A stretch of 34,816 nt of DNA, taken from the sequence record DRR378314_1717; one strand, written 5' to 3'. Position 1 is the stretch's first letter. Every line of letters starts with the position of its first letter. The position numbers were made by a program, and so were the translations under genes. Below the pieces are notes generated by a model. The model did not search any database. It saw only the letters and a program-made list of their open reading frames with translations, and had not been told where the DNA came from. Of this stretch, positions 9,942 to 27,840 are shown piece by piece.

Positions 9942-10934
9942 ATGGCCCGCGACGATTCACATCTTCCCAAAGCGCTGCAAGGGTTGCGCATTCCTTTGAT
10001 CGCCTCGCCCTTGTTTATCATTTCGGTGCCGAAACTGGTGATTGCACAATGTAAGGCGGGCATCGTCGGTTCGTTTCCGGCGTTGAACGCGCGGGAAGGG
10101 GCGGGGGAACATCCGCTGCTTGATACATGGCTGACCGAGATCCGCGAAGAGCTGGACCGCCATAACCAGGCAAACCCCGACAGCCCTGCCGCGCCCTATG
10201 CGGTGAACCAGATTGTGCATCGTTCAAACGAACGTCTTGAACGCGATCTGGAGATCTGTGTGAAACACGAGGTGCCGATCTGGATCACCAGCCTGGGTGC
10301 GCGGGTCGAGGTGAACGAGGCGGCGCATTCCTGCGGCGGGATCGTGATGCATGACATCATCAACAACCGTTTTGCAAAAAAGGCGATTGAAAAGGGCGCG
10401 GATGGGCTGGTCGCTGTGGCGGCTGGTGCGGGCGGGCATGCAGGGCAGCAATCGCCTTTTGCTTTGGTGCGTGAAATCCGTGAATGGTTTGACGGGCCGG
10501 TTGCGCTTTCTGGGGCGATTGCCGCAGGAGAATCCTTGCTGGGGGCCCGAGCGATGGGGGCTGATCTGGGATATACCGGGTCGCCGTTTATTGCCACGGA
10601 TGAGGCGAATGCGGATCAAGGGTATAAGGATATGATCGTCGGCTCCGGTGCCGAAGACATTGTTTATTCGTCCTTGTTCACCGGCGTTTGGGGCAACTAC
10701 CTGAAAGGATCGGTGACTGCTGCAGGCATGGACCCTGACAACCTGCCGCAAGCGGATGCCTCGTCAATGAATTTCGGGTCGGATCGTGAAAAGCCGAAAG
10801 CCTGGAAAACCATTTGGGGATCGGGGCAGGGGATTGGGGCAGTAAAATCCGTCGGTCCCGCGCATAAGATCGTGGACCGGATGGCAGATGAATATTTCGC
10901 GGCGGGCAAGAAACTGGCCGCAGAATTTTCATGA
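9942..10934 (+). CDS. nitronate monooxygenase / FabK-like FMN-dependent oxidoreductase family protein
   Basis: IASPLFIIS, GAGGHAG, LSGAIA and GADLGYTGSPFIAT motifs. ATG 9942 follows GGAGG. Confidence 0.87.
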   Translation: MARDDSHLPKALQGLRIPLIASPLFIISVPKLVIAQCKAGIVGSFPALNAREGAGEHPLLDTWLTEIREELDRHNQANPDSPAAPYAVNQIVHRSNERLERDLEICVKHEVPIWITSLGARVEVNEAAHSCGGIVMHDIINNRFAKKAIEKGADGLVAVAAGAGGHAGQQSPFALVREIREWFDGPVALSGAIAAGESLLGARAMGADLGYTGSPFIATDEANADQGYKDMIVGSGAEDIVYSSLFTGVWGNYLKGSVTAAGMDPDNLPQADASSMNFGSDREKPKAWKTIWGSGQGIGAVKSVGPAHKIVDRMADEYFAAGKKLAAEFS

Positions 10935-11581
10935 GTGAACTTTTGGTCATTCGCCACGGGCAGGCATCCTTTGGACAGGACAACTATGATGTGCTGTCCG
11001 ATTTGGGAGTTCAACAGTCTTTGGCGGTTGGTGCATTGCTGCGCGATATCGGCTGGGTGCCGGATCGATTGGTGACGGGCACGTTGAAACGACAGCGTGA
11101 TACGCTGTCATCGATGGGGTTCACCCAAACGCCCGAAGAACATGCAGGTTTCAACGAATACGACTTTGGAGACCTGCTGCATGCGCGCTTCAAAGGGGAT
11201 GTGCCTGATCTGGTCAAAGGCGAGCGCAAGACCCATTTCCGCGCGCTACGCGAAACCGTCTTTGAATGGCAGGATGCTGCGTTTGATGGCGCTTCGGAAA
11301 CATATGCCGAGTTTGCCGCAAGGGTTGAAACCGCGCGTGCCTTTGCCTGCGACACCACGGCCAAGCGGGTGCTGGTGATCTCTTCCGGTGGTGTCATCGG
11401 GCAGATGACGGCAACGGCATTGGGGGCGGGCAAACGCCAGATGATGGAATTGAATTTGCAGATCAAAAATACCGCCATGACGCGGTTCATGTTTTCCGGG
11501 GCACGGTTTGGTTTGCATGAATTCAACGCGACACCGCATTTTATGACGCCTGCGGGTGCGGACCTGCTAAGCTATAGCTGA
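10931..11581 (+). CDS. histidine phosphatase family protein
   Basis: VIRHGQASFG, RQRDT, FNEYD and ISSGGVI motifs (second His replaced by Ser); ATGA overlap. Confidence 0.88.
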   Translation: MSELLVIRHGQASFGQDNYDVLSDLGVQQSLAVGALLRDIGWVPDRLVTGTLKRQRDTLSSMGFTQTPEEHAGFNEYDFGDLLHARFKGDVPDLVKGERKTHFRALRETVFEWQDAAFDGASETYAEFAARVETARAFACDTTAKRVLVISSGGVIGQMTATALGAGKRQMMELNLQIKNTAMTRFMFSGARFGLHEFNATPHFMTPAGADLLSYS

Positions 11582-11590
11582 GGGAAGAAG

Positions 11591-12622
11591 ATGAGCGCAG
11601 ACACACAGACGTTGGATGAGGCCGCTGTCGCCGGGTATCTTAAGGAACATCTGCCCGGGTTCGCGGGGCCGATGGCGGTGACCAAGTTTCAGGGCGGGCA
11701 AAGCAACCCGACTTTCATGTTGGAAACGCCAACCAAAAATTATGTGCTGCGGCGCAAACCGCCGGGAGTTCTGTTGAAATCCGCCCATGCGGTGGACCGT
11801 GAGTTCCGGGTACAAAAGGCGCTGGAAGGATCGGAGGTGCCGGTCAGCAAGATGCACGTGCTTTGCGAGGATGATAATATCATCGGGTCGATGTTTTACG
11901 TCATGGACCATGTCCCGGGGCGCAATTTCAACGAACCTGCAATGCCAGACCTGACCCTGGCGGAGCGCGGCGGCATTACGGATGAGATGAACCGTGTGCT
12001 GGCTGCTCTGCATCAGGTTGATATCGGCGCGGTTGGTCTGGATGATTACGGCCCCGCGGGGAATTATTTCGAACGGCAGGTGGGGCGGTGGACCAAACAG
12101 TATAAAGCGTCGGAAACGCAAAGCATTCCGGCAATGGACGAGCTGATGAACCTTCTGGTCGAAGCCCGGCCTGCTGATGACGGGCAACGCACGCTGGTGC
12201 ATGGGGATTATCGGATCGACAATATGATTTTTGATGCCACGTCCACAGATTGCCGGGCGGTACTGGATTGGGAGCTGTCGACAATCGGCCACCCCTTTGC
12301 GGATCTGGCAGCTGTGATCATGCAATGGCAACTGCCTTCTGGCACCGAAGGGCGTGGGATGGGTGGCCTTGATCGTGCGGCACTTGGGCTGCCCTCGGAT
12401 GAGGAATTCATCGCCGCCTATTGCAAACGGCGGGGTCTGAAGGGTATCGACAATTTCGGCTATTACCTCGGCTTTTGCTTCTTTCGCATGGCAGGGATCA
12501 TTCAAGGCGTGTTGAAACGGGCACTGGACGGCAACGCTTCCAACCCGGAACGCGCGATGAAGGTCGGGGCTTTTGTGCCAGTCTTCGCCCAGCACGGGCT
12601 GGAGGCGCTAAAACGGGGATAA
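11591..12622 (+). CDS. APH-family phosphotransferase, ACAD10/ACAD11 N-terminal kinase-like
   Basis: GGQSNPT, LRRKPPG...SAHAVDREF, HGDYRIDN and VLDWELSTIGHP motifs. Confidence 0.9.
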   Translation: MSADTQTLDEAAVAGYLKEHLPGFAGPMAVTKFQGGQSNPTFMLETPTKNYVLRRKPPGVLLKSAHAVDREFRVQKALEGSEVPVSKMHVLCEDDNIIGSMFYVMDHVPGRNFNEPAMPDLTLAERGGITDEMNRVLAALHQVDIGAVGLDDYGPAGNYFERQVGRWTKQYKASETQSIPAMDELMNLLVEARPADDGQRTLVHGDYRIDNMIFDATSTDCRAVLDWELSTIGHPFADLAAVIMQWQLPSGTEGRGMGGLDRAALGLPSDEEFIAAYCKRRGLKGIDNFGYYLGFCFFRMAGIIQGVLKRALDGNASNPERAMKVGAFVPVFAQHGLEALKRG

Positions 12623-12626
12623 GAAT

Positions 12627-13442
12627 GTGATGGACGACCTTCAGATCAGCGCGGATGACATGAAAGACCGTAATTTCGTCACCGCCTTGGCGCGTGGGCT
12701 GGAGTTGCTGCGGTGTTTCCGCCCCGGTGAGGTTTCCCTCAGCAACTCGGACTTGTCAGAGCGCACGGGTCTGCCGAAAGCCACGATCTTTCGATTGACC
12801 CACACGCTGTGTGCGCTTGACTATCTTGTGGCCGATACCCGCGCAGGGACCTATCGCTTAAGTGCCGGTGTGCTGCATCTTGGATTCAGCGTGCTGTCAG
12901 CGATCGATATTGGTGAGCGGGCGCAATTTGAAATGCGCCAGTTGCGCGATGGGCCGAACAGTTACATCACCGTCGCCCTTGGAGAGCAGCATCAGCTGGA
13001 TGTGATCTATCTGGTGACCTGTAACTCGCACGAAGGTGTTGCACTTTCGATCCGGGTGGGCACCCGCCTGCCGCTGTTTGATTCAGGAATGGGTCAGGCG
13101 ATTCTGGTGGGGATGCAGGATGATGCCCGAGAGGCGGTTTTTGAAATTGCCGGTCGTGAAAGCAGCCAGCGAGAAGCGGACGGGCGTGCCCGGTTTGCGG
13201 AGGCCAAATCCTTCTACGAGGTTAATGGCTTCTGCACCGGCTACGGAACCTGGCGGTCGGATGTAAACGGCATTGCCGTGCCGGTCTTCTCTTTGGGTGG
13301 GGCACGGGTTTACGGGTTGAACGTCGGAGGGCCGTCGTTTCATGTAAAACCGAAACAACTTGAAAACGTATATGCACCACGTCTGATAAAAGCTGGCGAA
13401 GCACTTAGTGTTCGCATCGGTGAAGAGCCTCGCGGTCAGTAG
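12627..13442 (+). CDS. IclR-family transcriptional regulator
   Basis: N-terminal HTH FVTALARGLELL...LSERTGLPKATIFRLTHTL; C-terminal GTRLP...SGMG and GIAVPV. Start GTG 12627 or ATG 12630. Confidence 0.93.
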   Translation: MMDDLQISADDMKDRNFVTALARGLELLRCFRPGEVSLSNSDLSERTGLPKATIFRLTHTLCALDYLVADTRAGTYRLSAGVLHLGFSVLSAIDIGERAQFEMRQLRDGPNSYITVALGEQHQLDVIYLVTCNSHEGVALSIRVGTRLPLFDSGMGQAILVGMQDDAREAVFEIAGRESSQREADGRARFAEAKSFYEVNGFCTGYGTWRSDVNGIAVPVFSLGGARVYGLNVGGPSFHVKPKQLENVYAPRLIKAGEALSVRIGEEPRGQ

Positions 13443-13458
13443 TTTCGCAGAGCGGAAT
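13442..13458. promoter_or_regulatory. palindromic operator candidate (copy 2) at the start of the intergenic region before the ABC transporter
   Basis: GTTTCGC-AGA-GCGGAAT; right half-site identical to copy 1. Confidence 0.45.
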
Positions 13459-13810
13459 TCGGCGCGGTTAAATTCTGTCGATTCCCGTATTCCGTGTCTG
13501 GTTTTTTGGCGCTGCCTCTGGCGCGATTGTACTGCCAGCCCGACATGCGAATGATGTCGATTTGCGGCAGGTATTGTGTGAGTGAAATTGCTTTATTCAT
13601 ATAAATCATGGGATTGCGGATATTCTCCGAAATCACTCTTGCCTGTATCGATTTTTCCGGCGCTGAATTATATCGCTGATTTTCCCAAAATTACGCAGGG
13701 GAACAGATCACCTGTCCTCTTGACTTTGTCAGGGGGTGTGCAACTCTTTCTCCATCTAACAAGACCCCGAAAATATGAACTGGGGCGTGCTAAATCCTTG
13801 GGAGGAACAC

Positions 13811-15055
13811 ATGAAAAATCTAACGAAACTGGGCGTGGTTTCTGCGCTTTCGCTGGTCATTGGCGCTTCCGCTGCTTTTGCCGAAAACATCAAGATCGCT
13901 TTTATTGATCCCCTGTCTGGCCCCTTTGCCAGTACCGGCACAAACGGTCTGCACCAGTTTGAATTTGCCGCCGACCATATGGTCAATGAAAAGGGTGGCG
14001 TGTTGGGAGGCACAAACTTTGAAATCGTCGCTTTCGACAATAAGATCAGCCCGAAAGAATCCCTGATCCAGCTTCAGGTCGCGATTGACCAGGGCATCCG
14101 GTACATTGCACAGGGCAATAGCTCTGGTGTGGCGAACGCGCTGACCGAGGCGATTGACAAGCACAACAAGCGCAACCCGGACAGCCGTGTTTTGTTTCTG
14201 AACTATGCGGCGGTTGATCCTGCCCTGACAAATGAGAAGTGTAATTTCTGGCACTTCCGCTTTGACGCCAATGCCGACATCAAGATGGACGCGCTGACAG
14301 ATGTCATGGCTGCTGATGAGAACATGAAGAAAGTCTATATCATCGGTCAGGACTATTCCTTTGGTAAGGCTGTGGCTGCTGCCGCGGTTTCAAACCTGGC
14401 CAGCAAACGTTCCGACGTTGAGATTGTGGGCAATGAATTGCACCCGATTGGCAAGGTTAAGGACTTTACACCCTATTCACGCAAGATCGTCGCCTCTGGT
14501 GCGGATGCGGTGATTACCGGTAACTGGGGTGCTGACATGCTGGGTTTGGGCAAGTCGGTTATCGAAAACGGTTTTGATGGGCCTATCTACACCTATTACG
14601 CTGCCGGTTCCGGGATCACAGCGGCCTTTGGTGAAAGTGCAAAGGGGCGTATTCGACTGATCTCGCAGGGCGGTATCAACCCGATTGCCACCGATGAGGC
14701 GCGTGCGACATATGAAGCGTTTGAGGCAAAATACCCTGAGGGTAATATTGACCAGAGCCGCATCTTTAACGTGATCGGTATGCTGTCCCAAGCGATCGAG
14801 GCTGCTGGGACTGCGGATGATGTTGTCGCTGTGGCCAAGCAGCTTGAAGGCATGGAATATGAATCCATGTGGGGCGGTAAAGTGTTCATGCGTCCGCAGG
14901 ACCATCAAGCCATTCAGGATATGCATGTTGCCGTTCACACGGATGAAAATATCGACTTTGACTATGACCTGTCCGGCTATGGTGTTCTGACGGAGTCAAC
15001 TGTCGAGATGGCGTCGATGGACAGCCCGACGACATGTGAGATGAAGCGCCCTTAA
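13811..15055 (+). CDS. LIV-type (HAAT family) ABC transporter substrate-binding protein
   Basis: Sec signal peptide MKNLTKLGVVSALSLVIGASAAFA; IKIAFIDPLSGPFA; MRPQDHQ; GGAGG RBS before ATG 13811. Confidence 0.92.
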   Translation: MKNLTKLGVVSALSLVIGASAAFAENIKIAFIDPLSGPFASTGTNGLHQFEFAADHMVNEKGGVLGGTNFEIVAFDNKISPKESLIQLQVAIDQGIRYIAQGNSSGVANALTEAIDKHNKRNPDSRVLFLNYAAVDPALTNEKCNFWHFRFDANADIKMDALTDVMAADENMKKVYIIGQDYSFGKAVAAAAVSNLASKRSDVEIVGNELHPIGKVKDFTPYSRKIVASGADAVITGNWGADMLGLGKSVIENGFDGPIYTYYAAGSGITAAFGESAKGRIRLISQGGINPIATDEARATYEAFEAKYPEGNIDQSRIFNVIGMLSQAIEAAGTADDVVAVAKQLEGMEYESMWGGKVFMRPQDHQAIQDMHVAVHTDENIDFDYDLSGYGVLTESTVEMASMDSPTTCEMKRP

Positions 15056-15071
15056 GCGCCAATCTATATAA

Positions 15072-15100
15072 GGTCCGTCGCACGGGTTGTGCGGCGGGCC
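15072..15100 (+). promoter_or_regulatory. stem-loop after the SBP gene (differential mRNA stability or partial termination)
   Basis: GGTCCGTCGCAC-GGGTT-GTGCGGCGGGCC, a 12-bp stem with two G-U pairs. Confidence 0.6.
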
Positions 15101-15140
15101 AGATTTGCATTCTTTACCGCTTTTCCTCCAAGGGGGACCG

Positions 15141-16097
15141 ATGGAACTCATCCTCGTCAACATAATCGACGGGCTTGTGACCGGATTGCTGTTGTTCATG
15201 CTTTCGGCCGGCTTGACGCTGATCTTCTCAATGATGGGCGTTCTGAATTTCGCCCACGCCAGCTTTTACATGCTGGGTGCCTATTTTGCCTATCAGATCA
15301 GCATAGCGCTGGGATTCTGGGTTGGCCTGTTGATTGCCCCGCTGATTGTCGGGGTGATGGGTGCCGGTGTCGAACGATATGGGTTAAGGCGCGTGCATCA
15401 ATACGGTCATGTGCCCGAACTGATCTTTACCTTTGGTCTGGCATTATTGATCGAAGAACTGGTGCAGTTTATCTGGGGGAAGAACCAGATGCCCTATTCG
15501 ATCCCCGAGGTATTGGACTTCACAGCCTTTTCAATTGCCGGCAATTCGATCCCTGCGTTCAAGATTTTCATGATCTTCACCTCTGTCGGCATCTTCATCG
15601 GATTGTTGTTCATCCTGACAAAGACACGTGTCGGCATGATCATTCAGGCCGCGCTCAGCTATCCGCGCACGGTAGAGGCCTTGGGGCATAACGTGCCACT
15701 GATCTTTATGGGCGTGTTTGGTGTTGGCACCGCCTTGGCTGGTGTGGCTGGCGTGATCGCCGGGCCGGTGTTGGGCACTTTCCCGGGCATGGCCTTTGTA
15801 CTGGGCTCCATTGTGTTTGTGACCATCGTGATTGGTGGACTTGGCAGTCTTTGGGGCGCACTGGTTGCATCCCTGTTGATCGGGTGGATCACCACCTTTG
15901 CCAAATCCTATAATATTGCGATGTCGGACATTCTGAACGGACTTGGAATTGCAACGCCTGAAAACATGAGTGAAAATCCGCTGCGCGATTTATGGACAGT
16001 CACCAGCCCGCAAATTGCGGATATCCTGCCCTATATCCTGATGGTGCTGATCCTGATCTTCCGCCCGGCGGGCCTTTTCGGAAAGCGTGAATCATGA
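15141..16097 (+). CDS. LIV-type ABC transporter permease (LivH-like)
   Basis: GLTLIFSMMGVLNFAH, IGGLGS and RPAGLFG motifs; multiple TM segments; ATG 15141. Confidence 0.92.
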   Translation: MELILVNIIDGLVTGLLLFMLSAGLTLIFSMMGVLNFAHASFYMLGAYFAYQISIALGFWVGLLIAPLIVGVMGAGVERYGLRRVHQYGHVPELIFTFGLALLIEELVQFIWGKNQMPYSIPEVLDFTAFSIAGNSIPAFKIFMIFTSVGIFIGLLFILTKTRVGMIIQAALSYPRTVEALGHNVPLIFMGVFGVGTALAGVAGVIAGPVLGTFPGMAFVLGSIVFVTIVIGGLGSLWGALVASLLIGWITTFAKSYNIAMSDILNGLGIATPENMSENPLRDLWTVTSPQIADILPYILMVLILIFRPAGLFGKRES

Positions 16098-17392
16098 CCG
16101 ATCAGATCACAACAGATCCCAGCAAACCTTCCGAACGAATGCGCGCCGGGTCATTGACCCTGACGGCTGGCCCGTGGGTGGTTGCCGCCATTGCATTGAT
16201 GATCATGCCGTATATCTTCACGTCAAATTCCGCGCTGACAATCATGAACCAGATGTGGATCACGGTGATCTTTGCGCTGGCCTATAACATGTTGCTGGGG
16301 CAGGGCGGGATGCTGTCCTTTGGCCATGCGGTTTACATGGGCCTTGGCGGGTTCTTCTGCATGCACATCATGAATTACGTCGAGGACTTTGGCCTCGCGC
16401 TTCCCTTGCCGCTGCTGCCTTTGTTCGGTGGTCTATTCGGCATGGGCTTTGCGATGATTATCGGTTCCTTTTCGACCTCCGGTGCGGGTACACGCTTTGC
16501 CATGATCTCGCTTGGGGTTGGCGAATTGATTGCCGCTTGTTCAGTGATCATCGTGGCCTTCTTTGGCGGCGAAGAAGGGATCTCCGGTGACCGTACCTAT
16601 GGTCTGCCTTTCTTTGGCATCGAGTTCCTGAAGCAGATCGAGGTCTATTATCTGATCTCTTTCTGGCTGATGTTGTCGGCGCTTTTGATGTACCTGTTTT
16701 CGCGCACCCCCGTTGGCCGTATGGCAAATGCGGTACGGGACAACCCGGAGCGTGCGCAGTTCCTTGGTTACTCTGCCCGTTGGGTCCGGTTCTACAGCTT
16801 CTGTGCATCCGGCTTTTTCTGTGGCATCGCGGGCGGGCTGTTCGCCATCAGCTATGAAATCCTGACGGAAGAAAACCTGAATGCTGCTTCCTCTGGTGTG
16901 ATCCTCTTGGTGACATTCCTTGGTGGGGTTGGGTTCTTCTTTGGCCCGATCATCGGCGCAATTGTGTTCACGCTTTTGCAAACGGTCCTCAGTCTTCAGA
17001 CAGAGCTTTGGGCGATCTATGTGGGTTCGTTGTTCCTGGCCACTGTGATGTTCTTTCCCGGTGGGCTTGCCGGGTTGATGATGATGCATGTGCCGGCTGT
17101 CCGATTGGGCAAGGCCGGGGGGTTATTGGTGCCCTATTTCAAAACACTGGTGCCTGCCGCGATTGGTGTTCTGGGGATTTGCGCGCTGATCGAAATGGTT
17201 TTCCATGTTCGCCATGGTGCAACCGGTGATGTCGAAATGACCCTGTTCTGGACAACCTTTGACAGCCACACGGTACTGCCTTGGATCATTGCCGCATTGG
17301 TTGCGGTGGTGGGCATCGGCATCGCCAAAGCCACAGCACCGGGTTTGAAAGAGGCTTGGGACGAGGCGAATACCCCAGGAGGTGCATCATGA
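16094..17392 (+). CDS. LIV-type ABC transporter permease (LivM-like)
   Basis: YNMLLGQGGMLSFGHA, AVRDNPERA and LGGVGFFFGP motifs; ATGA overlap. Confidence 0.92.
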   Translation: MTDQITTDPSKPSERMRAGSLTLTAGPWVVAAIALMIMPYIFTSNSALTIMNQMWITVIFALAYNMLLGQGGMLSFGHAVYMGLGGFFCMHIMNYVEDFGLALPLPLLPLFGGLFGMGFAMIIGSFSTSGAGTRFAMISLGVGELIAACSVIIVAFFGGEEGISGDRTYGLPFFGIEFLKQIEVYYLISFWLMLSALLMYLFSRTPVGRMANAVRDNPERAQFLGYSARWVRFYSFCASGFFCGIAGGLFAISYEILTEENLNAASSGVILLVTFLGGVGFFFGPIIGAIVFTLLQTVLSLQTELWAIYVGSLFLATVMFFPGGLAGLMMMHVPAVRLGKAGGLLVPYFKTLVPAAIGVLGICALIEMVFHVRHGATGDVEMTLFWTTFDSHTVLPWIIAALVAVVGIGIAKATAPGLKEAWDEANTPGGAS

Positions 17393-18150
17393 GTGTTCCA
17401 GCACTTGAGCTGACCGGCCTTAAGAAGAGTTTTGGCAAAGCCGAGATTATTCGCGGGATCGACCTGTCAATTGGCAAGGCAGAACGTCATGCCATCATCG
17501 GCCCCAACGGCGCGGGCAAATCGACGCTGTTCAACCTGATCACTGCGCGCTTCCCGCCAACAGCGGGCACGGTGAAACTGCATGGGGAAGACCTGGCTGG
17601 TCTGGAACCCTATCAGATCAACCGCAAAGGTCTGTCACGATCATTCCAGATCACCAACATCTTTCCGGCCATGTCGGTGTTCGAGAATGTCCGTTGTGCA
17701 CTGCTTTGGGCGCAGGGATATAAATACTCCTTCTGGAATCTCGTGAACAACAGTCGCGGGTTGACCGAAGGGGCGGATGCCATCCTTGATCAAATCAACC
17801 TGCTTGAGCGCCGCAACCTGCCGGCGGGCACCCTGTCTTATGCGGAACAACGCGCCCTTGAAATCGGCATCACCATCGCCGGCGGCGCGGATGTGATCAT
17901 GCTGGATGAACCCACCGCCGGAATGAGCCATTCGGAAACCGACTATATCACCGACCTCATTATGAAGGTCACCGAAGGCAAGACTTTGATCATGGTGGAA
18001 CATGATATGGGTGTTGTCTTTGGCCTTGCTGACCGGATTTCCGTATTGGTCTATGGTGAGATTATCGCAACCAATACCCCCGAACTGGTGCGTGCGGATT
18101 CCAAGGTTCAGGAAGCCTATCTGGGTGCTGCGCTGGAGGAAGAACATTGA
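17389..18150 (+). CDS. LIV-type ABC transporter ATP-binding protein (LivG-like)
   Basis: Walker A GPNGAGKS, MLDEPTAG, EHDM and EAYLG motifs. ATG 17389 overlaps the upstream stop. Confidence 0.93.
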   Translation: MSVPALELTGLKKSFGKAEIIRGIDLSIGKAERHAIIGPNGAGKSTLFNLITARFPPTAGTVKLHGEDLAGLEPYQINRKGLSRSFQITNIFPAMSVFENVRCALLWAQGYKYSFWNLVNNSRGLTEGADAILDQINLLERRNLPAGTLSYAEQRALEIGITIAGGADVIMLDEPTAGMSHSETDYITDLIMKVTEGKTLIMVEHDMGVVFGLADRISVLVYGEIIATNTPELVRADSKVQEAYLGAALEEEH

Positions 18151-18848: not shown

Positions 18849-18872
18849 GACGACCGGAAAGTGAGGGCCGCG

Positions 18873-20078: not shown

Positions 20079-22030
20079 CGGCCAAGACTCTTTGGACTCC
20101 AACTGCGGAACGTTTTGAGGCCTCCACCATGGCGCAGTTTGAGCGGTTTGTGGGTGAAACCCGCGGGCTGGAGTTTTCTGATTACAACGCCATGTGGCGC
20201 TGGAGTATTGATGACCTTGAAGGGTTCTGGAATGCGATCTGGGATTTCTTTGATCTGCGTGCCTCTGTGCGCCCCGAAAAGCTGTTGGTCAAACGCCAGA
20301 TGCCGGACATGGAATGGGGCACGGGCGGGCGGCTGAACTATGCCGAGAATATCCTCAAACATGTTGACGGGGGGGCGGATGCACCGGCCCTGATTGTACA
20401 ATCAGAAACCTTTGGCCGGTCTGAAATGACATGGGGGCAATTGCAGGCTCAGGTGGCATCGGTTGCCAGACATCTGCGCGACATGGGGGTGCGCGAGGGC
20501 GACCGCGTTGTCGCGATCCTGCCGAACACGGAAACAGCGCTGATTGCCCTGCTTGCCACGGCAAGTATCGGCGCGGTTTGGTCCCTATGCGCGCCAGACA
20601 TGGGGCATGTGGCGATCCTTGACCGGTTCAAACAAATCGCGCCGAAGGTGTTGATTGCGCAGGATGGTTATGTCCATGGCGGCAAAACTTTGGACAGGCG
20701 CGAGGTGCTGACGCAGATTAATGCAGGCCTGCCGAGTGTGGTGCAATTTGTGACCTTGCCAGTGGTGGGCACATTGCCCGACGGCCATGTCGATTGGCAC
20801 GGCCTGACCAAGGATGACGTCCCGTTCGAGCCGGCCCAGGTTGGGTTCGAACATCCTTTGTGGATTGTTTACTCATCCGGCACCACGGGCAACCCCAAGC
20901 CGATTGTTCATGGCCATGGTGGCATCATTCTGGAGGCTGCGAAACAATCACTGCACCATGATATCAGCGCGGCAGATCGTTTTTGCTGGCTGACCTCATC
21001 AGGCTGGATCATGTGGAACGCGCAATGGATGGCGCTGGGGCAGGGTGCCTGTGTTGCGATGTTTGACGGCGCGCCGAACCATCCTGATATGGGGGTGCTA
21101 TGGCGTTTTGTTGCAGATGAAAAGCTGACCTATTTCGGGGCTGGTGCCGCCTATTTCAGCACCTGTATGAAAGCGGGGATTACCCCGCGCGAAGATGTCG
21201 ATTTATCCACCATTCGCTCGCTTGGCTCCACGGGGTCCCCCTTGTCGGGTGATGCTTATGATTGGATTTACCGTGATGTGAAAGCGGATCAATGGCTAGC
21301 GCCGATTTCCGGCGGCACCGACCTTGCCGGTGCATTTGTGCTGGGTCATCCCGGCATGCCGGTGCGTGCGGGCGAAATGCAGTGCCGTGCCCTGGGCAAT
21401 GCCACGCGGGCCTTTGATGCCTTGGGGAATGAATTGACCAGCGAGGTGGGCGAATTGGTCTGTACCGAACCGCTGCCGTCGATGCCGCTTTATTTCTGGG
21501 GGGACACAGATGGCAGCCGACTGCGCGAAAGCTACTTTGAGGATTATCCCGGCGTGTGGCGCCATGGCGATTGGATCTCGATTGACGAGACGGGGGCAAG
21601 TGTCATCTACGGGCGTTCTGACGCGACGATCAACCGGAAGGGGCTGCGCATGGGTAGTGCCGAAATCTATCAGGCGGTTGAAGGGCTGGACTGGGTGATG
21701 GATTCACTGGTTGTCGATCTGGAGTTTCTGGGCCGTGAAAGCTTTATGCCGCTGTTTGTGGTCACTGCTGAAAGCACCCCGCTCGATCAAATCCACAAGG
21801 ATGCAATTAACGCGGCCATTCGCGCGCAAGTTTCGGCGCGGTTCATTCCCAACGAGATTATCCAGATCAAGGATGTGCCACGCACCCTGTCGGGTAAGAA
21901 GCTTGAAGTTCCGGTGAAAAAGCTGTTGCTTGGCGGTGATCCGGCAAAGGTGGTCAATCGCGACAGCATGGCCAATCCCGACAGCTTTGATTTCTTTATC
22001 GCCTATGCGGACGCACGGGCCAATGCCTGA
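20075..22030 (+). CDS. acetoacetate--CoA ligase
   Basis: 651 aa; YSSGTTGNPKPIVHGHGG, GWIMWN, ISGGTD, WRHGDW, GRSDATINR and TLSGKKLEVP motifs. Confidence 0.9.
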   Translation: MTAKTLWTPTAERFEASTMAQFERFVGETRGLEFSDYNAMWRWSIDDLEGFWNAIWDFFDLRASVRPEKLLVKRQMPDMEWGTGGRLNYAENILKHVDGGADAPALIVQSETFGRSEMTWGQLQAQVASVARHLRDMGVREGDRVVAILPNTETALIALLATASIGAVWSLCAPDMGHVAILDRFKQIAPKVLIAQDGYVHGGKTLDRREVLTQINAGLPSVVQFVTLPVVGTLPDGHVDWHGLTKDDVPFEPAQVGFEHPLWIVYSSGTTGNPKPIVHGHGGIILEAAKQSLHHDISAADRFCWLTSSGWIMWNAQWMALGQGACVAMFDGAPNHPDMGVLWRFVADEKLTYFGAGAAYFSTCMKAGITPREDVDLSTIRSLGSTGSPLSGDAYDWIYRDVKADQWLAPISGGTDLAGAFVLGHPGMPVRAGEMQCRALGNATRAFDALGNELTSEVGELVCTEPLPSMPLYFWGDTDGSRLRESYFEDYPGVWRHGDWISIDETGASVIYGRSDATINRKGLRMGSAEIYQAVEGLDWVMDSLVVDLEFLGRESFMPLFVVTAESTPLDQIHKDAINAAIRAQVSARFIPNEIIQIKDVPRTLSGKKLEVPVKKLLLGGDPAKVVNRDSMANPDSFDFFIAYADARANA

Positions 22031-22039
22031 AAGTAAACC

Positions 22040-22915
22040 ATGAACCCTGCCGAAGAATTGTTGAATCTGCTGGACATTGAACAGCTTGAAGTTGACCTGT
22101 TTCGCGGTATCGGAGGGGGTGGCGAAACCACGACACGCATTTTTGGCGGGCATGTCATTGCGCAAGCGCTGATGGCCGCCTACCGCACGGTTGAGGATCG
22201 GCTGTGCCACTCCCTGCACGCCTATTTTATTCGCCCCGGTGATCCGAAAATCCCGGTGATCTATCAGGTGGACCGTGCGCGTGACGGCGGCAGTTTTACA
22301 ACACGTCGGGTTGTGGCGATCCAGCACGGTAAGCAGATTTTCAATATGTCCGCATCTTTTCACGTGGCCGAAGAGGGCTGGGAGTATCAGCATCCGATGA
22401 AAGATGTCGGATCACCCGAAGACTGGCCCAACCGCAATGATCTGCGGGCAGAGCATGTCGAAAAGCTGCCTGAAAAATACCATGCGGATTTTCTGCGGGA
22501 GCGCCCGATTGAACTGCGCGAAGTTGCCCCGCGGGATTTCTTCGAACCCGAGGTTGCAGATGATATTAATCAGCTGTGGTTCCGCATGGAGGCAGCAAAG
22601 GGCCAAAGCGCCCAGATGCAGCATTGCCTGCTGGCCTATGCCTCAGACATGAACCTGCTTGGATCGTCGCTACGGCCACATGGGTTGACCTGGTTTCAGG
22701 GCAAGGTGATGACCGCCAGCCTTGATCACGCCATGTGGTTTCATGCGCCTATCGAGTTTTCGGATTGGCATCTATATGATCTGGATGCCCCTTGGACGGG
22801 GGGCGCGCGCGGCTTTAACCGCGGATCGATCTACAGCCAAAGCGGCAAGATGGTGGCCAGCGTCGCACAGGAAGGGTTGATGCGCCCTTTGATGAAAAAC
22901 CCACCATCGGGCTGA
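22040..22915 (+). CDS. tesB: acyl-CoA thioesterase II
   Basis: IFGGHVIAQAL, HSLHAYF, RDGGSFTTRRV, YASD, SLDHAMWFH and QEGL motifs. Confidence 0.93.
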   Translation: MNPAEELLNLLDIEQLEVDLFRGIGGGGETTTRIFGGHVIAQALMAAYRTVEDRLCHSLHAYFIRPGDPKIPVIYQVDRARDGGSFTTRRVVAIQHGKQIFNMSASFHVAEEGWEYQHPMKDVGSPEDWPNRNDLRAEHVEKLPEKYHADFLRERPIELREVAPRDFFEPEVADDINQLWFRMEAAKGQSAQMQHCLLAYASDMNLLGSSLRPHGLTWFQGKVMTASLDHAMWFHAPIEFSDWHLYDLDAPWTGGARGFNRGSIYSQSGKMVASVAQEGLMRPLMKNPPSG

Positions 22916-22983
22916 GAAAATCCAGACTTGATTGGATTGGCATTCTGGGCAACCCTGTTCGCATTTAAGTACAGGGACACATT

Positions 22984-24546
22984 ATGTCAGATATCAAGAT
23001 TACCGCTCCGGTGGGCCTTTCCCCGCGCGAGAGTGATGGAAAACCAGTTAAAAACAAACCTGCGGATGTGCTGGTCATTCGCCAAATGCTGGAAGCAAAC
23101 AAAATCGGCCCGCTGGGTGACTCCAAGAAGATGGATACCGGTTTGCTGAAGGCAATTGAAAAATATCAAAAGAAGATCGGCATGAAGAAACCCGATCAAG
23201 TGATTGATCCGGGCGGGCGGACCATTCTTGCGCTTAAACCGAAATATGTGAAGGCGCTGAAAGACGCGGCCAAGGAACCGCGGGTGCGGGTCACCTTCCG
23301 TGGCAAGCAGATCGATTGTACGCAAAAGGAATTCGAAGCTGTCAAAAAGGACGTCATCAAGAATTTGACGCCCTATATGAAGTCGCTGGTTTCAAGCCAT
23401 AAAAACGCGATGAGCACCTATGAGGACTATCTAGATACCGCGATGTTGAAAGATGGTCTGCTGAACGCCGTGGCGCAGGTGATCATCATTGAAACCGGTG
23501 GCGTCACGATGCCAAAGAACAAGCTTGCGTTAAAGTCGATCTCGGCCTGTGGCAAACTTGAGCGGGCGATTTCTTCCAAGGATCTGGCGCTGATTGACGC
23601 AGCGCTACCAGAGGCGGAAAAAGCGATCAATGCGTTTCAGGCGGACCTTCTGCGGTTTCTGCGGGAGTTTACCGGGTCTGCGCAAACCACTGTTGTGGTT
23701 CTGGGCGTTACCTCGGCCGTTTGTTTTGCGGTTGTCGGCGCGCTGGCCACCCCGGTTCTGGTGGCCGGTGGCATGTCTGCCGGTGGTGCGGCTGTGACTT
23801 CGGGTGCGGGTGTCGGCATCTTACAAAGTGCGAGTCAGGAGCTGGGCAAACACGCCAGTGGCAGCAAAGTGACCGCATGGGATTCAATCAAATCAGTGGT
23901 GATTGACGGCACAATCGGTGGATTGACCGGCGGCATCGGTTCAAAGATCCCCTTGGGATGGTGTGATGATGCCGCCAAGGCTGTTGCACCGCGCCTTGCC
24001 TCCAAGGTGCCATTTATGGCCACCAAACAGCTGGAAAAATTCATCTCGAATTACCTTGCCGGTTCCGGTCAGGAAGTCATCAAATCTGCCATAAACGAGA
24101 GCGTTAAAATGCTGGGCGAGATGGTGAAAAAGGGCAAGGCCCCAACGCAAAAGGATTTTGAAAAGGCGGTTCAGAACATTCTTTACTCGGCCTTGCTGGG
24201 CGGGCTGGTCAAGAACCTTGGCAGTTTCCAGAAGAAATGGGCGTATAAGAACAAGGATATCCTACAGGGGAAAATCCTGCCTGCCCGTTGGGACAACGCG
24301 ACCAAAGGCATGGAGATTCCAAACACGCTTAAGGTCAAGATGTGGGCGGATGTCATGAACAAGGTCAGTGATAAGTCGCTTCAGGCTGGGTTTGATGCGG
24401 TAATTGCCAAGAGTTCCGGCAGCGAAAGTGACGCCAAACTTAGCAAGATCGCGGAAGAGGCATTGAAGAAAGACAAGGCTGTTCAAAAGCTGGTTGATGC
24501 CGAAATCCAAAAGGCGCTTAAGAAATATAAGGTGCCGGCAGGATAA
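22984..24546 (+). CDS. hypothetical Lys-rich protein with a peptidoglycan-binding-like N-terminus and a central hydrophobic Gly/Ala-rich segment
   Basis: 520-aa ORF filling the gap between operons, with an AGGGA RBS and a terminator. N-terminal pattern PVG..N.PADV..IRQML...AIEKYQ...PD.VIDPGGRT. Residues 229-285 contain no charged residue. Confidence 0.75.
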   Translation: MSDIKITAPVGLSPRESDGKPVKNKPADVLVIRQMLEANKIGPLGDSKKMDTGLLKAIEKYQKKIGMKKPDQVIDPGGRTILALKPKYVKALKDAAKEPRVRVTFRGKQIDCTQKEFEAVKKDVIKNLTPYMKSLVSSHKNAMSTYEDYLDTAMLKDGLLNAVAQVIIIETGGVTMPKNKLALKSISACGKLERAISSKDLALIDAALPEAEKAINAFQADLLRFLREFTGSAQTTVVVLGVTSAVCFAVVGALATPVLVAGGMSAGGAAVTSGAGVGILQSASQELGKHASGSKVTAWDSIKSVVIDGTIGGLTGGIGSKIPLGWCDDAAKAVAPRLASKVPFMATKQLEKFISNYLAGSGQEVIKSAINESVKMLGEMVKKGKAPTQKDFEKAVQNILYSALLGGLVKNLGSFQKKWAYKNKDILQGKILPARWDNATKGMEIPNTLKVKMWADVMNKVSDKSLQAGFDAVIAKSSGSESDAKLSKIAEEALKKDKAVQKLVDAEIQKALKKYKVPAG

Positions 24547-24556: not shown

Positions 24557-24587
24557 GGGCGCGCAGTTTAAACCGCGCGCCCTTTTT
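24557..24587 (+). terminator. intrinsic terminator between convergent genes
   Basis: GGGCGCGC-AGTTTAAACC-GCGCGCCC-TTTTT, 10 bp after the stop of the 520-aa ORF. Confidence 0.8.
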
Positions 24588-24591
24588 CGTT

Positions 24592-24963
24592 CTATCCGAA
24601 CACGAAAAAACAAATTTTGTTGCCATCGGGGTCATGGGCATAGGCCCCATAAAACCGATCAGGAATACGCTGGCCCGGTGCGCCATCATTGGTGGCCCCC
24701 AGCGCAATCGCGCGGGCATGTAACGTGTCGACCTCTTCCTTGGTTGAAACGGGAAAGGCGATCATATTGCCGTTCCCCGGCGCTGGTGCTTCCTTGTTAT
24801 AGGGTTCGCAGACCGCCAGCATCGGTTCGCCCCGTTTGGTCCCCAGAAACGCAATGCGTCCCATGTCGATGACAACTTTTGCACCCTGTGTCTCAAACAG
24901 ATCCGTGTAAAAAGTCTTAGCGCGTTCCATGTCAGAAACGCCGATAGTGGTATAGCCGATCAT
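24592..24963 (-). CDS. VOC (glyoxalase/bleomycin-resistance/dioxygenase) family protein
   Basis: MIGYTTIGVSDMERAKTFY, GNGNMIAF and FYGAYAHDPDGNKI motifs. Confidence 0.9.
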   Translation of the reverse strand: MIGYTTIGVSDMERAKTFYTDLFETQGAKVVIDMGRIAFLGTKRGEPMLAVCEPYNKEAPAPGNGNMIAFPVSTKEEVDTLHARAIALGATNDGAPGQRIPDRFYGAYAHDPDGNKICFFVFG

Positions 24964-24978
24964 CCCAGGTTGCCTTCC

Positions 24979-25752
24979 TTACATTTTCTTGTCGCTGAAT
25001 TTGCGGTTCAGCTTGCGCATGCCGCCGATCCAACGGTCGTAGTCGTCGGTTTTGTTTTTCATATAGGTGCGCACTTCTTCATGTGGCAGGATCAGAAAGG
25101 TTTCCTCGCGAATGGCCTCCAGACAAATCTGCGCCACTGGTTCGGGTTCCATCATCCCGTTGATCGCTGCCACATGATCTTCATGGCCACGGGTCATTTC
25201 CGTGCGCACGGCCTGCGGGCAGAGCACAGAGACCTTTATGCCCTCGTCACCATGGGTCAGTGCGATCCATTCGGCCAGTCCTACAGCTGCGTGTTTGGTG
25301 ACCCCGTAAGAGGCGGACCCTATCTGGTTCAACAACCCGGCCGCCGAGGCGGTGTTCAGCAAATACCCGCCACCCCGTGCCGCCATCAAGGGCACCAGAT
25401 GACGCGCGGCCCAGACATGGGCCATCACATTGATATCCCATGTGCGTTGCCATTCGCTGTTGGGGGTTTCCATCCCGCCCCCCACCGCGATACCGGCATT
25501 TGACCAGTAAAGATCAATCGGCCCGATGTCGCGCTCGACATTGTCGATCATCGCTTTGATCTGCGCCTCATCTGCCACATCAACAGTATAGGCGGCACCG
25601 CCCACCGCCTCGGCAGTTTCGCCGGCACCGTCGCCGTTCATATCGACACAGACAACCTGACGGGCACCCGCCTTGGCAAAGGCCATACACAGGGCTTTGC
25701 CGATGCCGCTGGCGGCCCCGGTTACGACACAGATTTTATCTTTGATTTCCAT
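24979..25752 (-). CDS. short-chain dehydrogenase/reductase
   Basis: TGAASGIG, SNAGI, TASAAGLL and YGVTK motifs; start ATG 25752 (MEIKDK). Confidence 0.9.
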   Translation of the reverse strand: MEIKDKICVVTGAASGIGKALCMAFAKAGARQVVCVDMNGDGAGETAEAVGGAAYTVDVADEAQIKAMIDNVERDIGPIDLYWSNAGIAVGGGMETPNSEWQRTWDINVMAHVWAARHLVPLMAARGGGYLLNTASAAGLLNQIGSASYGVTKHAAVGLAEWIALTHGDEGIKVSVLCPQAVRTEMTRGHEDHVAAINGMMEPEPVAQICLEAIREETFLILPHEEVRTYMKNKTDDYDRWIGGMRKLNRKFSDKKM

Positions 25753-25756
25753 GATC

Positions 25757-26527
25757 TCAGGTCCACATGTTTGAACCGCCACAGACGGTTAACGCCTGTC
25801 CGGTCATGTATTTGCTGGCGTCTGACGCGAGGAAAACCGCAAGACCGGCAAAGTCATCCGGGTCGCCTAGCCGACGCAGGGGTATTTCCTCTTCGATGCG
25901 TTTGGCGACTTCGGGATTGTCCCAAAGTTCGCGTGCAAATTCGGTTTTCACGAGGCCGGGGCAGATGGCGTTGAACCGTATCCCTTTGGGCCCAAATTCA
26001 GCGGCCAGATTACGTACCAGCCCGATCAGCGCAAGTTTCGACATGCCGTAGGTGCCCAGCATCACCGAAGGTTTGAACGCCCCGATAGAGGAGGTAAAGG
26101 CCATTGAGCCTGCCCCTTTGGCAACCATATCGGGGGCCACCATCTGTGCCAGCCAGAGGTTGGATTGCACATTGGCGTTCATGGTTTTCTGATAGGCATC
26201 ATCGGGGATTTCCGAAGTCTTGCCATAATAGGGGTTCACACCCGCATTGCCGATGACCACATCAATGGGCCCGGCAAGTTCATGTGTTTTATCAACCAAT
26301 GCCAGCAACTGCTCTTTATAGCCGACATTGCAGGCAACCGCATGTGCGGTCCCCTTTCCCAATGCCTTGATGCCAGCGGCAGCCTCGTCCAGCTGGTCCT
26401 GTTTGCGGGCCGAGATGACAACAGTGGCACCATGTTCGGAGAGGGCGGTGGCCATGGCCAGCCCCATGCCTTTGGAGGCGCCGGTCAGCAGCGCGACCTT
26501 TCCGGTCAGATCAAACAGCGTGCTCAT
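25757..26527 (-). CDS. short-chain dehydrogenase/reductase (DHRS4-like carbonyl reductase)
   Basis: TGASKGMG, NAGVNPYYG, YGMSK and CPGLVKTEFARELW motifs. ATGA overlap with the ACAD. Confidence 0.9.
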   Translation of the reverse strand: MSTLFDLTGKVALLTGASKGMGLAMATALSEHGATVVISARKQDQLDEAAAGIKALGKGTAHAVACNVGYKEQLLALVDKTHELAGPIDVVIGNAGVNPYYGKTSEIPDDAYQKTMNANVQSNLWLAQMVAPDMVAKGAGSMAFTSSIGAFKPSVMLGTYGMSKLALIGLVRNLAAEFGPKGIRFNAICPGLVKTEFARELWDNPEVAKRIEEEIPLRRLGDPDDFAGLAVFLASDASKYMTGQALTVCGGSNMWT

Positions 26528-27840
26528 CCCATGAACCCGCCGGAACCGCGCGCCTGCGTGTCCCCTTTGATCGCATCCTGACGCGAGTTGCTGTCTTTGT
26601 AAGTCTGCACTTCGTGACGGGCAATCACGTGGTGGTGTACTTCGTCAGGGCCATCCGCATACCGCAAGGTGCGTTGCTGTGCATACATCCCGGACAGTGG
26701 CGACCACTGAGAAATACCCGTGGCCCCATGCACCTGCATGGCCTGATCAATGATATCACAGACCTGCTCCGGCACTTTAGCCTTGATCATGCTGACCCAG
26801 ATGCGGGCCTCTTTATTGCCCAGCACATCCATTGCCTTGGCCGCTTTCAGCACCAGAAGGCGCATGCATTCAATCTCGATTTTTGCGCGCGAGATCGTTT
26901 CCATGTTCTTGCCCAGATCAACGATCTTTTTACCAAAAGCGACACGGTTCAAACCGCGATCAATCATCAGGTCCAGTGCCTTTTCCGCCTGTCCGATGGA
27001 CCGCATGCAATGGTGGATGCGGCCAGGCCCAAGGCGCACTTGGCTGATTTCAAAGCCTTTGCCCTCGCCCCAAAGCATGTTGGTTTCCGGCACGCGTACA
27101 TCGGTGAATTTGATATGCATATGGCCGTGCGGCGCATCATCGTGGCCAAAGACATGCATCGGGCCAAGGATCTCCACACCGGGTGTGTCCATGGGCACAA
27201 GGATCTGGCTTTGCTGGCGGAAAGGTTCGGCGTCGGGGGAGGTTTTGACCATCACGATCATGATCTTACAGCGCGGATCACCGGCACCCGAGATATAGTA
27301 TTTCTCGCCGTTCATCACCCATTCGCCGTTTTCCAGAACAGCCGTCATGCCGATATTCTTGGCGTCTGACGAGGCGCGGTCAGGTTCTGTCATTGCAAAG
27401 GCGGAACGGATTTCGCCTGCCAGCAAGGGCTTGAGCCATTTCTCTTTCTGCTCGGGTGTGCCGATGCGTTCGAGCACCTCCATATTGCCAGTGTCCGGTG
27501 CCGAACAGTTCAGCGTTTCAGAGGCCAGCGGGTTCTTTCCCAGTTCCGCGGCGATATAGGCATAGTCAAGATTGGACAGGCCTTCGCCGGTTTCCGCATT
27601 TGGCAAAAAGAAGTTCCACAATCCTGCATCGCGGGCCTTTTGCTTGGCCGCATTCATCAGCTTCATCTGTCCCTCTGTGTGGGACCAGCGGTTTTCGCGG
27701 CCCTCACCCAGACGGTAATATTCTTCGGACATCGGATCGACGTTTTCGCGGATGTGTTTGATCACAGCGTTCAACAGCGGCTTGGCCTTATCGGACATTT
27801 CAAGGTTGTTCAGGCTGAGAGGGGAGTTCGTATCGGACAT
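26524..27840 (-). CDS. acyl-CoA dehydrogenase, ACAD10/ACAD11 / FadE2 subfamily
   Basis: GLWNFFLP, NCSAPDTGNMEVL, AMTEP...SSDA, RLGPGRIHHCMR and RYADGPDEVH motifs. ATG 27840 follows AGGAGG. Confidence 0.92.
   Translation of the reverse strand: MSDTNSPLSLNNLEMSDKAKPLLNAVIKHIRENVDPMSEEYYRLGEGRENRWSHTEGQMKLMNAAKQKARDAGLWNFFLPNAETGEGLSNLDYAYIAAELGKNPLASETLNCSAPDTGNMEVLERIGTPEQKEKWLKPLLAGEIRSAFAMTEPDRASSDAKNIGMTAVLENGEWVMNGEKYYISGAGDPRCKIMIVMVKTSPDAEPFRQQSQILVPMDTPGVEILGPMHVFGHDDAPHGHMHIKFTDVRVPETNMLWGEGKGFEISQVRLGPGRIHHCMRSIGQAEKALDLMIDRGLNRVAFGKKIVDLGKNMETISRAKIEIECMRLLVLKAAKAMDVLGNKEARIWVSMIKAKVPEQVCDIIDQAMQVHGATGISQWSPLSGMYAQQRTLRYADGPDEVHHHVIARHEVQTYKDSNSRQDAIKGDTQARGSGGFMG

Follow-up and report, generated by a model that had tools for sequence, protein, structure and literature searches.

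An ACAD10/11-type kinase and dehydrogenase in a conserved roseobacter plasmid island and their probable phosphorylation-elimination route for 4-hydroxyacyl-CoA

Can a kinase and an acyl-CoA dehydrogenase (ACAD) whose genes lie 13.9 kb apart on opposite strands serve one catabolic route? The question is raised by a 34,816-nt stretch of DNA from record DRR378314_1717, read as one strand and called the window here, which is part of a Sulfitobacter-type plasmid with a fatty-acid-type catabolic island of about 30 kb. A sequence-only reading had proposed that the pair, akin to mammalian ACAD10/11 and to LvaA and LvaC of Pseudomonas putida, serves the degradation of imported 4-hydroxy or 4-oxo acids. 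Every feature named in it is present in its place. Both proteins belong to the ACAD10/11 / LvaA-LvaC family at residue level and their genes are linked, so that part of the proposal stands, while the imported substrate remains a guess. We consider it likely that the island encodes a phosphorylation-elimination route for 4-hydroxyacyl-CoA, completed by its own beta-oxidation enzymes. Residue-level family membership, conservation of the island, co-occurrence of the two genes and a shared candidate operator together make this the best reading.

The kinase gene (11591-12622, plus strand, 343 amino acids) starts at an ATG preceded by GAGGGAAG, and its product matches the Pfam family APH with 161 bits. 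The closest solved structure is PDB 3dxp (366 bits over residues 3-341), a stand-alone APH-fold protein that carries the PDB name 'putative acyl-CoA dehydrogenase' and comes from Cupriavidus pinatubonensis according to a preprint (10.1101/2025.09.10.675409). Residues 9-342 align with residues 18-355 of the mouse ACAD11 kinase domain at 287/283 bits. Among other PDB entries 9o56 reaches 160 bits and the next unrelated APH protein, 9fsg, 45 bits, and the NCBIfam model for APH(3') scores 32 bits. These PDB and NCBIfam scores place the protein nearer to the kinase domains of ACAD10/11 than to other families of the APH fold. The catalytic Asp is kept: HGDYRIDN aligns with HGDFKLDN of ACAD11, and the Asp of HGD falls in the column of D220, the catalytic kinase residue of ACAD11 (Rashan et al., PMC12440821). 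The sequence-only reading had called this an ACAD10/11-type kinase, and the alignments bear it out; we predict a 4-hydroxyacyl-CoA kinase.

The dehydrogenase gene (26524-27840, minus strand, 438 amino acids) starts at an ATG with AGGAGG 8 nt upstream; a longer GTG frame extends to 27870. The protein has the three-domain ACAD fold, with Pfam matches to Acyl-CoA_dh_N, _M and _1. Residues 26-423 align with residues 374-769 of mouse ACAD11 at 393 bits, human ACAD11 (2wbi) and 4hr3 score 374 and 373 bits, and classical ACADs reach at most 125 bits. Its RYADGPDE aligns with RLADGPDE, so that the Asp already singled out by the sequence-only reading corresponds to D753 of ACAD11, at the position of the catalytic base; in 8v3u this column is likewise Asp, and the inactive mutant 8v3v has Asn there. 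The R626/H634/R637 cluster of ACAD11, on a helix that faces the active site and is proposed to hold the phosphate (PMC12440821), is retained as VRLGPGRIHHCMR. The Asp and the R/H/R cluster are kept in all 45 ACAD family members of the fetched loci, whichever of the two ACAD clades described below they fall in. We predict an ACAD10/11 / LvaC-type 4-phosphoacyl-CoA phosphate eliminase.

The island is conserved throughout the Roseobacteraceae. Its gene order recurs nearly gene for gene in 82 related loci, namely two plasmid records and 80 roseobacter loci whose kinases are relatives at 70-92% identity. Of these, 67 reach 9 kb or more past the kinase on its downstream side, and 56 of the 67 have the importer next, as in the window; the ACAD then lies beyond the fetched flank. 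In the 13 loci that show the ACAD, it is always on the opposite strand and convergent with the kinase; ten of them have a gap of 1.8-3.1 kb, one has 6.7 kb, and the two plasmid records have 13.4-13.6 kb. The smallest form of the island has SDR1 (a short-chain dehydrogenase/reductase, SDR), the reductase NMO, the kinase and the thioesterase TesB facing SDR3 and the ACAD. Between the window's kinase and ACAD lie an IclR regulator, an ATP-binding cassette (ABC) importer, an esterase, an acetoacetate-CoA ligase, TesB and SDRs. As the ACAD neighbours the kinase in the compact loci, the 'split' of the two genes amounts to a pair of convergent neighbours that was opened up by the insertion of a regulator, an importer, an esterase, a ligase and other genes. 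The window layout is thus a derived form of a common alphaproteobacterial convergent pair: the genes lie in convergent operons, as the sequence-only reading had it, but the arrangement is not special.

The two genes also occur together across genomes. Among 301 sampled alphaproteobacterial genomes, with E-value cut-offs of 1e-30 for the kinase and 1e-70 for the ACAD, 111 have the kinase, 102 the ACAD, 101 both, 10 the kinase alone, one the ACAD alone and 189 neither; both are present in 101 of the 112 genomes bearing either gene and in 101 of the 111 bearing the kinase, in counts uncorrected for relatedness or genome size. These counts include the unpublished genome G243, and a kinase tally over 401 genomes used below includes G663, also unpublished; neither of the two entered any other result. 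In the closest genome reached, G002 (Sulfitobacter sp. M05, locus L023), identity to the window proteins is 92% for the kinase and 95% for the ACAD. There is exactly one kinase in each of G001, G002 and G003 and exactly one ACAD11-type gene in each of G002 and G003. In 20 kinase loci picked by hand from the top of the match list, and so not a random sample, the ACAD lies within the fetched stretch in 15, mostly as the direct neighbour. In roseobacters the kinase and the ACAD are likely to be paired.

Phylogenies against LvaA/LvaC and the ACAD10/11 domains had been proposed by the sequence-only reading. The kinase and ACAD trees cover bacterial loci only, those fetched in this analysis. The kinase tree (60 rows, careful method) puts the window kinase in a 17-row subclade with 99/100 support, whose non-roseobacter members adjoin ACADs of one particular clade, clade B. 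The ACAD tree (49 ACAD11-type proteins, quick method) has two clades. Clade B has 30 rows, 29 of them with a kinase within 8 kb, and one of its proteins scores 439 bits against ACAD11, above the 393 bits of the window ACAD. Clade A has 19 rows, namely the window ACAD, other roseobacter island ACADs and alphaproteobacterial orthologues of 56-78% identity; in other Alphaproteobacteria the ACADs of this clade stand alone, away from kinases. Since the window ACAD belongs to clade A and the relatives of its kinase lie beside clade-B ACADs, the two genes have different histories.

Nine non-roseobacter alphaproteobacterial loci (L086-L094) carry solitary orthologues of the window ACAD (70-78% identity), distant from any kinase. 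Their source genomes (G088, G254, G186, G119, G290, G198, G114, G161 and G138) all bear a kinase as well; in G186 and G198 it lies beside a clade-B ACAD, both placed on one contig. Tandem pairs of kinase paralogues beside one ACAD, whose copies fall into different subclades of the kinase tree, were seen in six alphaproteobacterial loci (L100, L101, L103, L106, L111 and L118). In G009, G073, G107, G191, G237, G270 and G278 the kinase match lies inside open frames of about 690-1220 amino acids, which suggests that fused kinase-ACAD genes of the ACAD11 type may also occur in bacteria.

The pair can be set beside several known systems. Mammalian ACAD11 and ACAD10 (8v3u, 8v3v, 2wbi; PMC12440821, PMC11342911) share with it the kinase fold and catalytic Asp, the ACAD fold, the Asp in place of Glu and the R/H/R cluster, but hold kinase and ACAD in one chain, whereas here they are separate genes. 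ACAD10 has an additional haloacid dehalogenase (HAD) domain; beside the window kinase there is a histidine-phosphatase-fold gene instead. Burkholderia pseudomallei, compared by description only, also has a separate ACAD10/11-like kinase (Q63VL0) and ACAD (Q63VL1), which we took to be neighbouring genes solely from their consecutive accession numbers. These split orthologues replace the ACAD10 domains in vitro and were assayed as purified kinase and ACAD alone, and the paper makes no mention of LvaB (PMC11342911).

The lvaABCDE genes of P. putida (described in PMC6692424, PMC11342911 and PMC12440821) likewise encode a CoA ligase, an SDR, a kinase and an ACAD-type eliminase. LvaA is only 29% identical to ACAD10/11 kinase domains (PMC11342911), to which the window kinase, at 287 bits, is far closer. 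P. putida has the 12-kDa LvaB and the sigma-54 regulator LvaR, whereas the window has no such small gene beside its kinase and an IclR-type regulator, with no sigma-54 activator among the window open reading frames (ORFs) scanned; unlike lva, the island is plasmid-borne and includes an ABC importer. The lva cluster of P. citronellolis LA18T also does without lvaB. Next to its lvaA homologue is a 218-amino-acid histidine-phosphatase-family gene, and homologues of LvaC and LvaD come after it; unlike in the window, the genes form one tight cluster. The authors called for functional analysis of the phosphatase (PMC6692424). With 59% identity to LvaA (PMC6692424), the LA18T kinase probably falls in a distant LvaA-like clade. 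Seen against these systems, the kinase-ACAD pair is an expected addition to a pathway that has been demonstrated before, in mammals, in Pseudomonas and in Burkholderia.

In the route that we propose, a CoA ligase would form the acyl-CoA and an SDR, most likely SDR4, which is coupled to the ACAD, would reduce 4-oxoacyl-CoA to 4-hydroxyacyl-CoA where needed. The APH-fold kinase would use ATP to phosphorylate the 4-hydroxyl group, and the ACAD10/11-type flavoenzyme would remove the phosphate from the resulting 4-phosphoacyl-CoA by transient oxidation, elimination and re-reduction, yielding 2-enoyl-CoA. The island's hydratase, 3-hydroxyacyl-CoA dehydrogenase and thiolase would then complete beta-oxidation. 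We infer the kinase and ACAD reactions from homologues tested by others, including the split Burkholderia pair; ACAD10/11 are described as acting only on 4-hydroxy/4-phosphoacyl-CoA (PMC12440821). What is imported is a guess, be it levulinate, gamma-lactones or lipid-oxidation products, and so are the roles of the esterase, the reductases, TesB and the two phosphatases. The esterase, the acetoacetate-CoA ligase, which scores above threshold, and three ene- or carbonyl-reductases might fit short oxo acids, esters and oxidised lipids equally well. A literature search returned nothing linking acetoacetyl-CoA synthetase with levulinate, nor azelaic acid with roseobacters.

Does the pair have a third partner? 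The sequence-only reading had seen no small LvaB-like gene. There is indeed no small ORF beside the kinase, and the gaps on its two sides (10 nt and 4 nt) leave no room for one, but in gene order the place of such a partner is taken by a gene within the span of that reading that it left uninterpreted. This gene, HP1 (10931-11581, plus strand), encodes a histidine-phosphatase-fold protein (Pfam His_Phos_1, 67.5 bits), overlaps the stop of NMO and ends 10 nt upstream of the kinase, which is followed after 4 nt by the IclR gene. In 67 of the 82 related loci HP1 is found 0-16 nt in front of the kinase. R8, H9, R54 and E76 are invariant in 32 orthologues, so the RHG nucleophile, second Arg and acidic proton donor are present. 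The second His of the superfamily is absent: Ser152, in VISSGG, aligns with the second catalytic His of 9mmh. SSGG is found in 64 of 67 roseobacter orthologues, and RH[GA] with [ST]SGG in all 27 HP1-like ORFs from fetched loci of other Pseudomonadota. The AlphaFold model (pLDDT 93.9) has histidine-family small-molecule phosphatases as its top Foldseek matches (TM 0.65-0.74, about 20% identity).

HP1 tends to travel with the kinase. In 401 Pseudomonadota genomes, full-length HP1 relatives occur in 58, of which 55 bear the kinase as well; the kinase is present in 109 genomes in all, and in 25 genomes the two lie no more than 3.7 kb apart. Arrangements elsewhere include HP1-ACAD-kinase-quinone oxidoreductase, ACAD-SDR-kinase-HP1-SDR and, with no ACAD in the stretch, HP1-SCP2-kinase-SDR. 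In the kinase tree, HP1-linked kinases make up 15 of 18 rows of a deep clade, one member of which (L136) is closest to PDB 9o56, and 13 of 17 rows of the window's subclade, with none in the other two subclades (10 and 15 rows); as rows L119-L145 were picked for HP1 adjacency, these proportions are biased, though the clustering is not. HP1 does not accompany the kinase everywhere: an HP1 profile matched nothing in 33 alphaproteobacterial loci (L086-L118) with a kinase or an ACAD, and the compact roseobacter variants lack HP1. A distant paralogue lies elsewhere in G001 and G003.

A 111-amino-acid SCP2-fold ORF (PF02036, 77 bits; L128 7599-7934, minus strand) follows HP1 in one locus, and such an ORF also follows it in L129, L131, L134, L137, L139, L141 and L146-L148. 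Seven loci have the SCP2-fold ORF placed between HP1 and the kinase; these also contain an SDR, and no ACAD is present in the stretch. The size of the 111-amino-acid ORF matches the 12 kDa reported for LvaB. No SCP2-like ORF was found in the window.

HP1 may be a third component of the pathway. A more specific proposal, which we put forward tentatively and hold to be possible rather than probable, is that it is a dedicated component of the module, from a Ser-for-His subfamily that travels with both deep kinase clades, and would control the pool of 4-phosphoacyl-CoA or of free 4-phosphoacid. It would then stand in the place of LvaB as a non-homologous bacterial counterpart of the ACAD10 HAD domain. 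Accounts of that domain differ: Paquay et al. describe it as restraining the kinase, with negligible phosphatase activity, and the preprint 10.1101/2025.09.10.675409 as a phosphatase acting on an ether-lipid phosphate. In the literature searched, only PMC6692424 links the HP1 family to the pathway, and in passing. A complex prediction for kinase and HP1, run without supplied alignments and without controls, scored 0.00, and we draw no inference from it.

The rest of the window consists of four gene units beside a plasmid replication gene, with families assigned by Pfam, NCBIfam and PDB sequence searches. A Rep_3-type initiator (76-1263, plus strand; Rep3_N 70 bits, Rep3_C 55 bits) confirms the plasmid-type replicon claimed by the sequence-only reading. 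A 20-kb stretch of the window, used as query, matched 12 plasmid records at 75-80% identity. All 12 belong to Sulfitobacter and three span at least 80% of the query; the best kinase relatives, up to 92% identical, come from Sulfitobacter as well. The left arm (1293-4486, mixed strands) holds a MaoC hydratase (1293-1934, minus; Pfam), a CurA/PTGR-like NADPH alkenal/one reductase (1775-2779, minus; Pfam, NCBIfam), a canonical histidine phosphatase, HisPhos2 (2820-3476, plus; His_Phos_1 150 bits, with RHGE and VVHGG motifs), and a quinone-oxidoreductase-like medium-chain dehydrogenase/reductase (3485-4486, minus; Pfam, NCBIfam). NCBIfam scores in this arm are 358 bits for CurA, 227 for leukotriene B4 (LTB4) 12-hydroxydehydrogenase and 239 for PIG3. 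The left-arm genes are kept in most of the 82 related loci. So is HisPhos2, which sits between two left-arm reductase genes; with HP1 alongside it, the island holds two phosphatase-fold genes.

The first plus-strand operon (4594-13442) begins with a PimC/PimD-like two-subunit ACAD (4594-5787 and 5784-6899; 259 and 170 bits, below the cut-offs), followed by SDR1 (6823-7722, start uncertain; Pfam), SDR2 (7722-8648; Pfam), a thiolase (8670-9866; Pfam/NCBIfam) and the flavin mononucleotide (FMN) NMO/FabK-like reductase (9870-10934), whose best PDB matches are FabK enzymes at about 60 bits. HP1 and the kinase come next, and the operon ends with the IclR-family regulator (12627-13442; Pfam HTH_IclR and IclR_C; NCBIfam PcaR/PcaU 108 bits, below cut-off). 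The second plus-strand operon (13775-24546) opens with a LivKHMGF-type ABC importer (13775-18848; Pfam) of one binding protein, two permeases and two ATPases. The binding protein has a signal peptide, with the N-terminus MKNLTKLGVVSALSLVIGASAAFA; the best PDB match is 4xfk at 158 bits. Then come a family VIII carboxylesterase of beta-lactamase fold (18861-20078; Pfam Beta-lactamase 211 bits; 7pp3 306 bits and EstB 1ci8 136 bits), with no signal peptide on inspection of the N-terminus by eye, an acetoacetate-CoA ligase (20075-22030; NF002937 892 bits, cut-off 639; TIGR01217 717 bits, cut-off 521), and the acyl-CoA thioesterase II TesB (22040-22915; 272 bits, below the cut-off of 481). The importer, the esterase and, with the FadD-type enzyme of the convergent operon, two CoA ligases are therefore present as had been described.

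The last ORF of this operon (22984-24546, 520 amino acids) is Lys-rich with a hydrophobic Gly/Ala-rich centre, lies in a stretch of lower G+C (0.53) and has no match in Pfam or NCBIfam. It resembles Atlas clusters of peptidoglycan-binding proteins (scores 0.98 and 0.96; PG_binding_1 on 23-56% of members). In the relatives its place is occupied by a gamma-carbonic anhydrase or an amidohydrolase. Being absent from relatives and peptidoglycan-binding-like, it was rejected as a pathway member.

The convergent operon (31663-24592, minus strand) starts with a FadD-type acyl-CoA ligase (29948-31663), followed by a 3-hydroxyacyl-CoA dehydrogenase (28659-29951) and an enoyl-CoA hydratase (27883-28842, start uncertain), all three from Pfam/NCBIfam. 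Downstream of the ACAD lie SDR4 (25757-26527; Pfam), SDR3 (24979-25782; Pfam) and a VOC/glyoxalase-fold protein (24592-24963; Pfam). The start of SDR4 overlaps the ACAD stop in ATGA, as the sequence-only reading saw, and SDR4 is a candidate 4-oxoacyl-CoA reductase that is translationally coupled to the ACAD. Compact variants keep SDR3 or SDR4 next to the ACAD. The operons are convergent as claimed, with a hairpin of 13-nt arms (92% complementary) and a TTTTT run (24557-24582, plus strand) between them. At the right edge a non-ribosomal peptide synthetase begins (32019-34814, plus strand, open at the window end; Condensation 139 bits, AMP-binding 276 bits); ORFs also listed on the minus strand across this gene match no family.

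Are the distant genes also controlled together? A palindrome, TTCCGC-N3-GCGGAA, is probably the operator of the IclR regulator. One candidate, TTCTGCACAGCGGAA (4560-4574, one mismatch to this consensus), lies in the divergent promoter region, and another, TTTCGCAGAGCGGAA (13443-13457, one mismatch), directly behind the IclR gene and upstream of the ABC operon. A weaker box, TACCGCACAACGGAA (31773-31787, two mismatches), lies upstream of the ligase/ACAD operon. GC-N3-GCGGAA is retained in 49 of 54 regions orthologous to the 4560 intergenic region, and the half-motif in 45 of 52 regions orthologous to that at 13443. Boxes at the position equivalent to 31773 have two mismatches in L001, three in L002 and two in L097. 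Probably, then, kinase and ACAD stay under one IclR regulator. In four sequencing runs the kinase, HP1, importer, SDR and ACAD genes are touched only by short, low-depth contigs. Two of the runs are only presumed to be RNA and DNA carry-over is possible, so these reads are too weak a sign of transcription or co-expression.

Several observations weigh against a common route. The box in front of the ACAD operon is the weak one, and the operator motif was derived from the two regions in which it was later counted, so independent evidence comes only from its conservation and the third site. The 12-mer GCACAGCGGAAT, at up to two mismatches, is not enriched window-wide (6 found, 5.1 expected), and the weight therefore rests only on placement and on conservation in relatives. 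To these are added the uncorrected co-occurrence counts and the genome G261, in which the island kinase and ACAD are about 385 kb apart. Of the 19 clade-A ACADs, 13 lack a kinase within 8 kb and have nearly no island genes nearby; in clade B a kinase is missing at that distance in one of 30. The nearest relatives of the kinase outside the roseobacters, in other Pseudomonadota, sit beside clade-B ACADs. Finally, prokaryotic kinase homologues are reported to phosphorylate 1-O-alkylglycerol in vitro (preprint 10.1101/2025.09.10.675409). The clade figures would suit an account in which the two proteins are not partners, the clade-A ACAD having its own substrate without a dedicated kinase and the kinase and HP1 serving another phospho-intermediate, as might the seven loci with HP1, the SCP2-like gene, kinase and SDR and no ACAD in the stretch. 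Nevertheless, clade A has not lost the Asp or the R/H/R phosphate cluster, a single kinase and a single ACAD11-type gene are present in each of G002 and G003, and ten compact loci keep the two 1.8-3.1 kb apart, so we regard this account as improbable.

The alkylglycerol activity raises a different prospect, that the kinase acts on a lipid alcohol such as 1-O-alkylglycerol with HP1 as the matching phosphatase, mirroring kinase and HAD of ACAD10 in ether-lipid salvage. Several prokaryotic homologues are reported to phosphorylate chimyl alcohol and the ACAD10 HAD domain to have phosphatase activity, in vitro activities that are broad by the preprint's own account (10.1101/2025.09.10.675409), and in the island a phosphatase-fold gene is tightly coupled to that of the kinase. 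We think this very improbable for the window: among the ORFs scanned there is no family typical of glycerolipid or ether-lipid metabolism, many island genes encode acyl-CoA enzymes, and a phosphate-eliminating ACAD accompanies the kinase in 101 of 111 genomes. A further possibility keeps the pair together in another role, the repair or salvage of 4-hydroxyacyl-CoA side products, while the PimC/PimD-like ACAD and the reductases of the island break down a different acid brought in from outside, for example a dicarboxylate or an oxidised lipid, with TesB and the phosphatases as overflow valves. The island does hold a full second beta-oxidation set (PimC/PimD-like ACAD, MaoC, two SDRs and thiolase) and three ene- or carbonyl-reductases, the minimal module of the compact variants is without importer and ligases, and ACAD11-type genes are frequently solitary. 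We still judge salvage unlikely, as the candidate operator is common to the kinase, importer and ACAD operons and as importer, esterase and ligases are inserted exactly between kinase and ACAD, a placement that suggests one pathway. The phosphorylation-elimination route remains our preferred reading.

The pair extends a known pathway to roseobacter plasmids and by itself adds little. It does give unnamed 'phosphotransferase' and 'acyl-CoA dehydrogenase' genes of abundant marine bacteria a probable function. HP1 offers a directly testable idea of how cells limit 4-phosphoacyl-CoA, a question that two recent papers answer differently for the HAD domain of ACAD10. The island itself is a natural experiment in which a two-gene core acquired an importer, an esterase and ligases, and its cargo may point to a physiological 4-hydroxy or 4-oxo acid consumed by algae-associated bacteria.

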